Below, piece after piece: positions 16,723 to 22,989 of a stretch of DNA of 26,908 nt. The notes under the pieces are model-generated. The model worked only from the letters and a program-made list of their open reading frames with translations. It was not told where the DNA came from and searched no databases. Made by a program: the position numbers and the translations under genes. The stretch spans positions 1-26,908 of the forward strand of contig JBFFRO010000001.1 in the NCBI GenBank assembly GCA_041572995.1, written 5' to 3'. Within the stretch, counting starts at the first letter, position 1; each line of letters begins with the position of its first letter. The DNA is from Thiohalomonadaceae bacterium (lineage in GTDB: Bacteria; Pseudomonadota; Gammaproteobacteria; Thiohalomonadales; Thiohalomonadaceae).

Positions 16723-16814
16723 ACCCACATCTTTATGGAACGGTGCGCTTGAGAGCCGCAAAGGGTGAGGCAACCGATTGATTTAGTCAAGTATGCCGCC
16801 GGCCGCCGGCCCTG

Positions 16815-16823
16815 TGGTATGTT
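16815..16823 (+). promoter_or_regulatory. Candidate extended -10 promoter for clpSA
   Basis: TGgTATGTT ending 32 nt upstream of ATG 16855. Confidence 0.4.
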
Positions 16824-16854
16824 TGACCCAGAACCTGTAACGACTCGGAAGACC

Positions 16855-17181
16855 ATGGCAGAACACGAACCCCACCACGGCGACGACGATCACGACCTGG
16901 CCGTCGAGGAGAGCAAGCCCAAGCTCAAGCGCCCACCCATGTACAAGGTGCTGTTGTTAAATGACGACTTCACCCCCATGGATTTTGTAGTGCACGTGTT
17001 GGAGCAGTTCTTCCGCATCGACCGCCACAAGGCGACCCAGATTATGCTTACGGTGCACACCGAGGGGCGCGCGGTCTGCGGCATCTACAGCCGCGAGGTG
17101 GCGGAGATGAAGGTGGAACAGGTGAACGACTATTCACGCAAGCACGAACACCCCCTACTGTGCGTGATGGAGCAGGAGTGA
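16855..17181 (+). CDS. clpS: ATP-dependent Clp protease adaptor ClpS
   Basis: [33 protein letters not shown]. Start reassigned to ATG 16855. Confidence 0.96.
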
Positions 17182-17188
17182 CGCGGAT

Positions 17189-19438
17189 ATGCTGAGTAAA
17201 GAGCTGGAATTCACCATTAACCTTGCCTACAAAGAGGCGAGGGAGAACAACCACGAGTTCATGACCGTGGAACACCTGCTGCTGGCGCTGCTGGATGACC
17301 CGGTGGCACGCCCCATCCTGCGCGCCTGCGGCGCCGAGCTGGAGGAGCTGCACGCGGATCTGAGCGACTTTATCGACGCCAATACCCCGCGGCTGATGGA
17401 AGGCCAGGAGACCCAGCCCACCCTCGGCTTCCAGCGGGTACTGCAGCGGGCGGTGTTCCAGGCCTCGTCCTCCGAGCGGCCCGAGGCCACCGGTGCCAAC
17501 GCCCTGGTGGCCCTGTTCAGCGAGAAGGAGTCGCAGGCGGTCTACCTGCTGGACCAGCAGGGGGTCACCCGCCTGGATGTGGTTAACCACATCTCCCACG
17601 GTGAGGAGGCCGATTTTGATGACCGGCGTGCCGAGCCCAGCGAGGGCGGCAACAACGGCGAGGCCCAGGAGAGCCCGCTGGAGGCCTACGCCACCAATCT
17701 CAACGAGGAGGCGGCCAAGGGCCGCATCGACCCGCTCATCGGTCGTAAGGACGAGCTGGAGCGCACCCTGCAGGTGCTCTGCCGCCGGCGCAAGAACAAC
17801 CCGCTGCTGGTGGGTGAGGCGGGGGTCGGCAAGACCGCCCTGGCAGAGGGGCTGGCACGCAAGATTGTCGAGGGCGAGGTGCCTGAGGTGCTGGCCGATG
17901 CCGAGGTCTACGCCCTGGATATGGGCGCGCTGGTGGCCGGCACCAAGTACCGCGGTGACTTCGAGAAGCGCCTCAAGGCGCTGCTCAAGGCGCTCAAGCA
18001 GCAGACCAACGCCATCCTCTTTATCGATGAGATTCATACCATCATCGGTGCCGGCTCTACCTCCGGCGGCAGCATGGACGCCTCCAACCTGCTGAAACCG
18101 GCACTGGCTGCCGGCGATCTCAAGTGCGTGGGCTCCACCACCTACCAGGAGTACCGCGGCATCTTCGAGAAGGACCATGCCCTGGCCCGTCGCTTCCAGA
18201 AGATCGACGTGCCCGAGCCGAGTGTGGCCGAGACGATTCAGATCCTCGAGGGGCTCAAGTCCCGCTTCGAGGAGCACCACGAGGTGAAGTTCACCCGCCC
18301 GGCACTGCGCCATGCGGTGGAGTTGGCCGAGCGCTATATCAACGAGCGCCACCTGCCGGACAAGGCGGTGGACGTGATCGACGAGGCGGGTGCTGCGCAG
18401 CGGCTGCTGGCCCCCTCCAAGCGCAAAAAGACCATCGGCGTGAAGGAGGTCGAGGCGGTGGTGGCCAAGATAGCGCGCATCCCGCCGAAGACCGTCTCCA
18501 GCTCCGACAAGGAGAACCTGCGCAACCTGGAGCGTGACCTGAAACTGATGATCTACGGTCAGGACCCGGCCATCGACGCGCTCTCGACCGCGATCAAGAT
18601 GTCCCGCTCCGGACTTGGCAGCGAGCAGAAGCCGATCGGCTCCTTCCTGTTTGCCGGTCCCACTGGCGTGGGCAAGACCGAGGTAACCCGCCAGCTGGCC
18701 AAGATCATGGGCATCGAGCTGATTCGCTTCGATATGTCCGAGTACATGGAGCGCCACACCGTCTCCCGCCTCATCGGTGCACCGCCCGGCTATGTCGGCT
18801 ACGACCAGGGTGGTTTGCTCACCGACGCGGTCAACAAGCACCCGCATGCCGTGGTGCTGCTGGATGAGATCGAGAAGGCCCACCCGGAGGTCTTTAACCT
18901 GCTGTTGCAGGTGATGGACCACGGCACGCTGACCGATAATAACGGTCGCAAGGCGGATTTCCGCAACGTGATCCTGGTGATGACCACCAATGCCGGGGCC
19001 GAGCAGATGGCACGCCGCTCCATCGGCTTCGCGCCGCAGGACCACACCACCGACGGTATGGAGGCGCTGAACAAGCTCTTCACACCAGAGTTCCGCAACC
19101 GCCTGGATGCCATCATTCAGTTCCAGCCGCTGGGCGATGATACCGTTGGCCACGTGGTGGACAAGTTCCTGCTGGAGCTTGAGGCGCAGCTGGAGGCCAA
19201 GGGTGTTTCCATCGAGCTCGACGAGGCGGCCCGTGCCTGGCTGGCCGAGCGCGGCTACGATAAGGCGATGGGGGCCCGCCCCATGGCCCGCCTGATCCGC
19301 GAGCGCCTGAAGAAGCCGATGGCCGAGGAGTTGCTGTTCGGTCGCCTGGAGAATGGCGGCAGTGTGCGGGTGACCGCGAAGGACGGGGAGCTGGCCTTCG
19401 AGTTCGTGGGCAGCGACGAGCCGGTGACGGTGGATTAG
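17189..19438 (+). CDS. clpA: ATP-dependent Clp protease ATP-binding subunit ClpA
   Basis: [13 protein letters not shown], Walker A GEAGVGKT and [28 protein letters not shown] loop; 749 aa, no ClpB-type middle domain. Confidence 0.97.
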
Positions 19439-20213: not shown

Positions 20214-21077
20214 TCAATCCAGGCCGAGGTCGAGATCCAGCAGGCTGAGGTCCAGCTCCGCCTCCTGGTAGAGCTCCAGGTCTTCCCAGCGGCCGTTGTT
20301 GAGGTGCTCCAGCGGTTTGAAACGGCGTTTGTAGCTCATCTTCGGGCAGTCGCCGATCCAGTAGCCGAGGTAGAGGTGAGGCAGACCTCGCAGGCGGCAC
20401 TGCTCGATCTGGCTGAGAACGGCAAAGCTGCCCAGTCCGCGGCGGCGCTCCTCGGGTTCGAAGAAGGTGTAGACCGCCGAGAGGCCGTAGTCGAGGACAT
20501 CGGTGATGGCCACTGCCAGCAGACGTCCACCGCGAGCGGCACTTTCGCGGAATTCGATAAATTCGCAGCGCCCCAGACCATCGACGAGAAAGTCGCGGTA
20601 ACGCTCCGGGTCGCGGTTGTCCATCACATCGCCACTGTGGCGATGCGCCTGGTAGCGGCAGTAGAGCTCGAAGTGCTCCTCATCGAAGGCCGCCTCGCGG
20701 ATGTGCAGCTCTAGGTCGGCGTTGGCCTTGATGCAACGGCGCTGGCTGCGGTCAGGTTTGAACTGTTCCACCGGAATGCGCACCGCGCGGCAGGCCTCGC
20801 AGTCCGGGCAGCGTGGCGCGTAGACGTGATGGCCGCTACGGCGAAAGCCCATCTCCACCAGTGCCGAGTAACTGGAGATGTCCATGGGCTGGATATCGAC
20901 GCTGACCTTCTCTTCGGCCTCCTCACTGTGCGGGTCCAGTGCCTTGGGGCCGCCCGGCACCGCCACCAGGAACTGGGCGGTGGGGCCGTCCAGATAGTTG
21001 CAGGGGTGGGGCACGCTGAGGCCGAACTTCATGTCGGCGGGCAGGCGCTCCAGTGGGGCCTGGTCCGGATGCTTCAT
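20214..21077 (-). CDS. bpt: Aspartate/glutamate leucyltransferase (ATE-like, Bpt)
   Basis: [47 protein letters not shown]. Overlaps aat by 4 bp. Confidence 0.9.
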
Positions 21078-21811
21078 GGTGTATCCCCCTCGATGTCCCA
21101 GGGGCCGGGGAGGGTGGGATCATCACCGTACTCGTCCAGCAGCGCCTCGAAGCGGGGGCGGGGCAGGGTTTCGGCCCCCAGGCTCATCAGGTGGCCGGTG
21201 GCCTGCTGACAGTCGATGAGGCCGAAGCCGTGGGCCTTGAGCCATTCCACCAGACGGACCAGGGCCACCTTGGAGGCATCACGCTGGCGGCTGAACATCG
21301 ACTCGCCGAAGAAGACCCGGCCGATGGCGATGCCATAGAGGCCACCGACCAGTTCCCCCTCATGCCAAACCTCCACCGAGTGGGCGTGACCGAGGCGGTG
21401 CATCTCGCAGTAGGCCGCGCGCATTTCCTCGGTGATCCAGGTACCCGCTTCGCCCTCGGCCAGCTCTTCCTGTCGTGGTGCGGCGCAGGCGTCGATTACC
21501 TGCTCGAAGGCGGTATCCAGGGTGGCCGTGTAGCCGCGATTGCGCAGGCTTTTGCCCAGGCTGCGGCTCACCTTCAACTTGTCGGGAAAGAGCACTGCGC
21601 GCGGCTCCGGGCTCCACCAGAGGATGGGCTGATCATCGCTATACCAGGGGAAGATACCCCGGCGGTAGGCGGCCAGCAGCCAGGACGGTGAAAGCGCACC
21701 ACCCACCCCCAGCAGCCCGTCGGGGTCGCGACAGGCATACTCGGTAGGCGGGAATAGCGGCGGCCCCTCCGGCTCCAGCCAGAACGGCCCCTCGGGGCTT
21801 GGGTGACTCAT
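21074..21811 (-). CDS. aat: Leucyl/phenylalanyl-tRNA-protein transferase
   Basis: [61 protein letters not shown]. Start reassigned to ATG 21811; the longer ORF overlaps the upstream gene. Confidence 0.95.
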
Positions 21812-21849
21812 GGGGCTATTGCACCATTGGCGATTGTACGGATGCAAGG

Positions 21850-22989
21850 TCAGGTGCCGCGGAATGGCAAATGGCCACGCATCTCCTCGGCGTACTCCCG
21901 AATTGCCTGCTCCTCGCGCTCGCAGTAACCGGCCACCGCTGCGGCGAAGTCGGCCTCGCGCAGCCAGTGGGCGGAGCGGGTGAGGCTGGGTTCGAAGCCG
22001 CGCCACACTTTGTGCTCGCCTTGGGCGCCGGGTTCGAATCGCTGTAGACCCTCACGCAGGCAGTAGTCGATCCCCTGGTAGTAGCAGAGCTCAAAGTGCA
22101 GGTCGTCAAAGTGCTCATCACACCCCCAGTGGCGGCCGTAGAGGGTGTCGTCTGAGCGTAGCGAAAGGGCGCCGGCAACCGTACGGCCTTCATGCTCGGC
22201 CAGCATCAGCACCAGCGCCTCGGGCATGGCCTCGGCCAGGTGGACAAAGAAGGGCAGGGTGAGGGTGGCGTGGCCGCCGCGCCGCTCGAAGGTGTCTCGG
22301 TAGAAGCGGTGGAAGTGGAACCAGTCCGCCTCGCTGGCACTGTGACCGTCCATAACCCGTACCGTGACGCCATGCTCCTGCACCCGTCGCCGCTCGCGCC
22401 GCAGTTGCTTGCGGCGCTTGCTGCTGAAGTCATCGAGAAAGGCCTCGAAGTCTCCCCAGCCGCGATTGTGCCAGTGGAACTGCACATCATATCGCAGGGC
22501 CAGTTGCTCCCCCTGGCAGAAGTCGGCATCACCCTCATCGAGAAATAGCAGGTGTAGCGAGGAGAGCGCCTCTTTTTCGGCCATCGCCGTGGCAGCCTGC
22601 AGCAGGGCGCGGCGGGCGGTCTCTTTGTCCTCGTCGCTGTGGATGAGGAAGCGCGGACCGGTGACCGGCGAGTAGGGCACGGCGCTGACTAGCTTGGGGT
22701 AGTAGCTGCGCCCGCTACGGGCATAGGCGTCGGCCCAGCTCCAGTCGAAGACCAGCTCGCCGTAGCTGTTCTCCTTGAGGTACAGCGGCAGGGCGCCGGT
22801 GAGCCGACCTGCATCGTCGCGCAGCAGCAGGTGGCGTGGGTGCCAGCCCCACTTCTCACCCACGCAGCCGTGGGCCTCCAGGCCGGCGAGAAACTCATGG
22901 CGCAGAAAGGGGTTACGAATGCCGCCGCCGAGTGCGTTCCACTCGGCGGCGGGGATCTCGGCCAGGGACTGACAGATGGTGACGGGCAT
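21850..22989 (-). CDS. FemAB-like tandem GNAT protein (COG3146/DUF482 type)
   Basis: [72 protein letters not shown]. The alternative start is GTG 22995. Confidence 0.88.

Follow-up and report, generated by a model that had tools for sequence, protein, structure and literature searches.

A two-domain GNAT-fold protein encoded beside aat, bpt and clpS-clpA is a candidate aminoacyl-tRNA-dependent partner of the N-degron pathway in bacteria

We analyzed a stretch of 26,908 nucleotides (the window), positions 1 to 26,908 of contig JBFFRO010000001.1 of a Thiohalomonadaceae bacterium (assembly GCA_041572995.1); the contig is the first of 402 in a 2.09-Mb assembly with a completeness estimate of 93%. 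The window carries a minus-strand row in which a gene of the PF04339/COG3146 family ("FemAB_like," formerly DUF482; here COG3146) precedes the aminoacyl-tRNA–protein transferase genes aat and bpt, facing the genes of the N-degron adaptor ClpS and the unfoldase ClpA. Aat acts on N-terminal Arg and Lys, Bpt acts on Asp and Glu, and the bacterial N-degron pathway has been described with these two modifying enzymes. The predicted fold of COG3146 and its genomic company point to an aminoacyl-tRNA-dependent transferase that may work with ClpS and ClpAP.

Results

The transferase row faces clpS-clpA

The COG3146 gene is present in one copy in the genome, and its product matches PF04339 over profile positions 1–368 of 369. 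Its longest open reading frame (ORF) encodes 381 residues from a GTG start; the database gene call (P0001) begins at an ATG at 22989 and encodes 379 residues. The ATG of aat, read from the sequence, lies 38 bp beyond the COG3146 stop, and a 4-bp overlap (ATGA) joins the end of aat to the beginning of bpt. An earlier reading of the window from its letters alone (the sequence-only reading) had proposed this gene order and both spacings, and the ORFs and their Pfam and NCBIfam matches bear it out. It had also placed the row less than 1 kb from the end of clpA: the plus-strand clpS-clpA pair is convergent with the row, and the clpA and bpt ends are 776 bp apart, with infA and a 75-residue ORF, neither mentioned in that reading, in between. 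A consensus scan for minus-strand terminators from trxB to bpt found none, its counts being at chance level. The family models align to the 287-residue bpt ORF only from about residue 24–53, and its N-terminus may be shorter; the true start may be Met16, in which case the overlap with aat would disappear.

Table 1. Genes and ORFs of the window discussed in the text
Feature	Coordinates	Strand	Matches and remarks
trxB, thioredoxin reductase	26028-25045	-	TIGR01292, 391 bits
Sulfatase-family membrane protein, 664 aa, between trxB and COG3146	25022-23028	-	PF00884; weak LtaS/OpgB-like matches
COG3146 (PF04339, "FemAB_like")	22995-21850	-	Pfam 485.6 bits (cut-off 27)
aat, leucyl/phenylalanyl-tRNA–protein transferase	21811-21074	-	TIGR00667, 207 bits (cut-off 143.6); PF03588, 253.7 bits
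bpt, Ate-type leucyltransferase	21077-20214	-	NF002341, 289 bits (cut-off 252); PF04376 and PF04377
75-aa ORF, between bpt and infA	20108-19881	-	No Pfam or NCBIfam match
infA, translation initiation factor IF-1	19738-19520	-	72-aa ORF; last of the minus-strand row
clpA, AAA+ unfoldase of ClpAP	17189-19438	+	Clp_N, AAA, AAA_2 and ClpB_D2-small domains
clpS, N-degron recognition adaptor	16765-17181	+	PF02617, 123 bits; start codon uncertain

The predicted fold of COG3146 is closest to aminoacyl-tRNA-dependent enzymes

An AlphaFold (AF2) model of COG3146, built on 40 homologs, has a predicted local distance difference test score of 94.6 and a predicted template modeling score of 0.92 and comprises two GNAT-like domains. 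Structural comparison had been suggested as a check on the assignment; searched with Foldseek and VIA-align, which returned the same ranking order, the predicted model grouped with the aminoacyl-tRNA-dependent Fem and MprF enzymes and not with coenzyme A (CoA)-dependent GNATs. VIA-align ranks 1–22 (Z 21.7–17.0) are all occupied by aminoacyl-tRNA-dependent enzymes: FemX of Weissella (Z 21.7) leads the Sba18/Sbb17 peptide synthases (Z 19.9), FemA (Z 19.7) and the C-terminal aminoacyl-phosphatidylglycerol synthase domains of MprF (Z 17–18.5). CoA-dependent tandem GNATs also match the model clearly (Z 14–16), the first of them at Z 15.8. The weak sequence matches agree with this ranking; that to FemX has E 0.09, and Sba18, at E 0.03, is the best sequence match in the PDB.

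FemX and the other FemABX proteins compared, which are aminoacyl-tRNA transferases acting on peptidoglycan (Weissella viridescens FemX, 4ii9 and 1ne9; Staphylococcus aureus FemA, 1lrz, and FemX, 6snr) likewise consist of two tandem GNAT-like domains, and about 300 residues of FemX align with COG3146. However, sequence identity is only 12–17%, COG3146 has no PF02388 match and lacks the coiled-coil arm of FemA, and its hosts are Gram-negative bacteria and plants without branched peptidoglycan, in which it is found in the company of clpS, clpA, aat and bpt rather than of cell-wall genes. The Sba18/Sbb17 (9wqw, 9wqx and 9wqy) and MprF (4v34–4v36 and 5vrv) structures, which match at Z 17–19.9 with a root-mean-square deviation of 3.3–3.6 over about 268 residues, also belong to users of aminoacyl-tRNA. 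The acceptor of these enzymes is an antibiotic intermediate or a membrane lipid, and they are encoded in biosynthetic clusters or fused to a flippase, whereas COG3146 is a stand-alone, housekeeping-type protein.

Two features have been described as shared by the GNAT-fold aminoacyl-tRNA transferases: a basic tRNA-binding helix, reported to be absent from other GNATs, and a catalytic Lys that follows an aromatic residue, as in FemX F304-K305 and Ate1 Y303-K304 (Kim et al., PMC9351520). In the COG3146 model, a basic helix (residues 190–205) lies at the domain junction, and FemX likewise has one where its second domain begins; in COG3146, R193, K194 and E199 are invariant and R200 is nearly so. 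This helix may contact tRNA. K327 is invariant within the motif GEHKxxRGF (alignments A1, A2 and A5) and, like K305 of FemX, stands toward the C-terminus, with about 31 residues of the FemX-aligned range still to follow; it is preceded by His instead of Phe or Tyr, and the putative equivalence rests on position and conservation rather than on a residue-level superposition. Acyl-CoA GNATs bind the CoA pyrophosphate through motif A (Q/R-x-x-G-x-G/A), which connects strand 4 with helix 3. By eye, no such motif was seen after the strand at residues 282–290 of COG3146 or at the counterpart in the first domain.

The sequence-only reading had described COG3146, Aat and Bpt as three tandem transferases of the FemAB fold. 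The shared fold and clan stand, and each of the three has at most a weak match to the general GNAT profile PF13480 (2.6e-17 for COG3146). A relationship at the profile level does not: COG3146 matches neither PF03588 nor TIGR00667 of Aat and neither PF04376 nor PF04377 of Bpt/Ate, and hhalign gave probabilities of 0.2% against the aat alignment and 0.3% against the bpt alignment, so that no direct homology was found (probability <1%). Nor do the architectures agree, as COG3146 is a two-domain, FemX-like protein about 140 residues longer than Aat and Bpt, with a full second GNAT domain in place of their small N-terminal domains. Bpt does have a Tyr-Lys catalytic pair and a basic helix.

COG3146 keeps company with aat, bpt and clpS-clpA

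To place the locus among its relatives, 300 gammaproteobacterial genomes were drawn evenly over families, and one locus per family (60 loci, in 20-kb stretches) was chosen solely for sufficient flanking sequence. With the window proteins as tblastn queries, aat was found within 10 kb of the PF04339 gene in 46 of the 60 loci, mostly directly downstream on the same strand. trxB, the usual upstream neighbor, was found in 36, infA in 31, bpt in 28, and clpA and clpS in 26. The estimated gap from COG3146 to aat has a median of 10 bp (31 of 44 gaps are ≤30 bp, and several are 1- or 4-bp overlaps), and that from aat to bpt has a median of −2 bp. This spacing is operon-like, unlike that from trxB to COG3146 (median 100 bp) or from bpt to infA (83 bp). 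COG3146 kept aat as a neighbor after losing trxB in 11 loci and kept trxB after losing aat in one. In the locus of another genome from the family of the window genome (G164, locus L013), an insertion of about 2.5 kb separates aat from bpt, and COG3146 and aat are still adjacent.

A second class of the phylum, the alphaproteobacteria (judged from named loci), was sampled in 20 families. In eight of them, clpA-clpS is convergent with COG3146, at a distance from its 3′ end of 56 bp to 2.6 kb; just one of the 20 loci has aat within 10 kb. The row of same-strand genes RidA/YjgF-like (PF14588), GDPD, PF04339 and HIT, followed by convergent clpA-clpS, is seen in L076 (8933-11061), L087, L093, L096, L109 and L140. 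HIT proteins hydrolyze aminoacyl-adenylates, and this neighbor hints at aminoacyl chemistry. Matches in a scan of named genomes were almost exclusively from Pseudomonadota. Most Lysobacterales loci retain trxB-COG3146-aat, usually followed by infA and convergent clpA, and the pairing with clpA is retained in Rhizobium, Agrobacterium, Brucella, SAR116 and Rhodospirillaceae.

Further layouts came from a metagenome scan that started from a Myxococcota/SAR324-like branch of the PF04339 family. In L203, PF04339, clpS and clpA follow one another on one strand with gaps of 6 and 1 bp; in L242, the same order has a gap of 15 bp and then a 4-bp overlap. Two unrelated lineages from metagenomes thus have a tight PF04339-clpS-clpA operon. 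Among the proteins of L242, cluster mates carry Thermodesulfobacteriota and Phycisphaerae labels of metagenome-assembled genomes, and on one 2.2-kb NCBI contig ClpS and a GNAT gene have neighboring accessions. In a Myxococcota-like clade (L186, L188, L190 and L195), clpS-clpA is divergent from PF04339, and about 100–150 bp separate it from the PF04339 start in the two best-resolved loci, L186 and L188; a genome of the Oligoflexus phylum (G612, L262) also has PF04339 divergent from clpS-clpA. The PF04339 proteins of these loci are just 33–45% identical to one another, except inside the L186 group.

The statistics on gene neighborhoods, also suggested earlier as a check, come down on the side of the proposed link: in gammaproteobacteria COG3146 forms an operon-like unit with aat and bpt, and other classes and phyla place it beside clpS-clpA in at least three further layouts. 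An association of this kind, with clpS, clpA, aat or bpt and conserved between distant lineages, is what a component of the ClpS/ClpAP pathway would show. The company of clpS-clpA in other layouts is stronger evidence than the gammaproteobacterial synteny.

Other neighbors were also noted. In Burkholderiales (L110, L128, L142 and L158), PF04339 is divergent from nadE-glnB; in several loci of Cellvibrionales/SAR86 type it follows a UbiA prenyltransferase gene; elsewhere DUF938 is a frequent neighbor. None of these is conserved across lineages.

Distribution, co-occurrence and domain fusions

PF04339 is highly conserved and mostly single-copy. It was found in 178 of the 300 genomes of the class, 162 of them with E below 1e-30, and in 94 of 221 genomes of a phylum sample that includes this class; it is thus present in roughly half of the Pseudomonadota sampled. 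It also occurs in one other phylum (about 29%), in one cyanobacterial control genome and in plants, whose proteins group with the alphaproteobacterial branch in a tree. The class tallies for PF04339 and aat include the unpublished genomes G039, G141 and G296, from which no loci were taken. aat is present in 157 of the 162 PF04339-positive genomes of the class versus 51 of the 138 others, and all five positive genomes without aat have ClpS. In the Oligoflexus phylum, ClpS is present in 35 of 35 PF04339-positive genomes versus 68 of 86 others. These co-occurrences are confounded by genome reduction and relatedness and count only as consistent with a shared pathway.

The only convincing domain fusion found, which looks real, is P0291 (797 residues, five member sequences), in which a full PF04339 domain (539 bits) is joined to a C-terminal M20 peptidase/amidohydrolase. 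P0300, with a trxB fragment, PF04339 and aat, was set aside; its partial domain matches are weak and it looks like read-through of three adjacent genes. Long algal and plant PF04339 proteins were assumed to be gene-model mergers.

Other genes of the row

The sulfatase-family gene between trxB and COG3146 was considered as a partner in a lipid or envelope function and dropped. It occupies this position in 0 of the 60 related loci and is therefore a local, lineage-specific insertion into a conserved row, outside the conserved unit. The 75-residue ORF is probably a real small gene, because tblastn matches (39–51% identity) occur at the same position in eight of the 60 gammaproteobacterial loci. 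The same-position infA matches in these loci are 72–94% identical.

Discussion

Together, these data suggest that COG3146 is a Fem/MprF-type transferase dependent on aminoacyl-tRNA that works in, or with, the ClpS–ClpAP N-degron pathway, a reading to which we give about even chances. The aminoacyl-tRNA donor is suggested by the fold ranking and the two hallmarks, the basic helix and K327; the pathway link is suggested by gene neighborhoods. In its likeliest role, COG3146 would be a soluble tandem-GNAT transferase with aminoacyl-tRNA as the donor of the aminoacyl group, and it would mark protein N-termini of a class, or some other amine on proteins, served by neither Aat nor Bpt, and it could thereby create ClpS-recognized N-termini on substrates beyond the reach of those two enzymes. 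The acceptor and the amino acid transferred are guesses. The most specific form of the proposal, that COG3146 is a third N-degron-making aminoacyl-tRNA–protein transferase, is correspondingly more tentative, a possibility that we would not yet bet on.

Several observations weigh against the pathway reading, beyond the confounded co-occurrence and the positional basis of the K327 match, and they are taken here with the alternatives that they favor. The best supported of these, although we consider it rather unlikely, is that COG3146 uses aminoacyl-tRNA (or aminoacyl-adenylate) to modify a small metabolite or a lipid head group, as do FemX, Sba18/Sbb17, VlmA and MprF, and that its place beside aat, bpt and clpSA reflects shared ancestry or regulation. 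None of its closest structural relatives has a protein acceptor; all modify small molecules or lipids. The alphaproteobacterial same-strand neighbors encode small-molecule enzymes (RidA/YjgF-like, GDPD and HIT), and the P0291 fusion brings in an M20 amidohydrolase. The reduced genomes G040 (0.9 Mb) and G250 (1.2 Mb; L045) keep PF04339 and ClpS, and aat was not found in them; Aat therefore does not seem to be required for the PF04339 gene to function, nor does the gene seem to be readily lost. A plant homolog, At2g23390, is listed among chloroplast stromal proteins in a proteomics paper (PMC3531887). This alternative, however, leaves unexplained the tight PF04339-clpS-clpA operons (gaps 1–15 bp) of two lineages far apart, the pairing of PF04339 with a divergent clpS in another two, and the operon-like spacing to aat and bpt; and in the loci compared, no metabolic-pathway neighbor of PF04339 is conserved across lineages.

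It is less probable still, and in our view improbable, that the neighborhood has no functional meaning and is the relic of an old gene order. Unrelated genes are kept as neighbors about as often: besides trxB and infA, these are ftsK, lolA, rarA and serS, found on the far side of trxB in about 30–60% of the gammaproteobacterial loci. The region is a slowly rearranging housekeeping block whose conservation within the class is largely inherited; inheritance could therefore account for much of the linkage to aat as well, and taken alone that linkage is weak evidence because the region is broadly syntenic. Linkage has also been lost widely. Among the named genomes, none was found in Burkholderiales, Sphingomonas, Alteromonas, Colwellia and others, and 21 of 22 loci of the Oligoflexus phylum (L102 and L162–L181) have neither this linkage nor another conserved neighbor, the exception being L262. 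The three clpS layouts, moreover, can be interconverted by local inversions and need not be independent gains; they therefore reflect gain on several occasions or else a very long persistence in spite of rearrangement. In both cases the place next to clpS is kept, and in two lineages it is tightened into an operon. Mere inheritance of gene order is at odds with three observations: the operon-like spacing to aat that is not seen with trxB, the 11-to-1 excess of loci that keep aat over those that keep trxB, and a clpS adjacency that persists when orientation changes and turns into a tight operon among proteins only 33–45% identical.

That COG3146 is an ordinary acyl-CoA-dependent N-acyltransferase, acting for example on protein N-termini or a metabolite, is very unlikely: the PF13480 match, the database names "GNAT family N-acetyltransferase" and "acyl-CoA N-acyltransferase" and the clear structural matches to CoA-dependent tandem GNATs speak for it, but those enzymes rank below every aminoacyl-tRNA-dependent one, the CoA pyrophosphate-binding motif is visible in neither domain, a basic junction helix and an invariant Lys are described as features of the tRNA-dependent group (PMC9351520), and a text search for "enzyme activity" found nothing in the cotton study that names the plant homolog an acyl-CoA N-acyltransferase.

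With Aat and Bpt, COG3146 has in common the clan and fold, the gene row in gammaproteobacteria and the association with clpS-clpA. Full-text searches found no link between COG3146, DUF482 or PF04339 and the N-degron pathway, and the guess in the sequence-only reading that comparative genomics had already noted one was not borne out in the searchable literature. An earlier mention is possible in Iyer et al. 2009 (Mol Biosyst), which reportedly deals with GNAT-type peptide ligases. The only published comparative-genomics prediction that we found for COG3146 is that of a "pterin-dependent enzyme" (Gerdes et al. 2011; PMC3223725), and the authors themselves count it among their invalidated predictions. 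A pterin link was likewise rejected here, as no pterin carbinolamine dehydratase gene adjoins COG3146 in the loci examined.

PF04339 is a widespread and conserved family without a known activity and a good candidate for a missing enzyme of the ClpS/ClpA N-degron pathway. The prediction is directly testable in Caulobacter, Xanthomonas or Agrobacterium, and in plants the homologs typified by At2g23390 could be a missing transferase of a chloroplast N-degron pathway. If COG3146 is indeed an aminoacyl-tRNA transferase that feeds ClpS and ClpAP, a large body of "GNAT family N-acetyltransferase" annotation would be wrong, and the rules that set protein half-life in bacteria, and perhaps in plastids, would gain a new branch.

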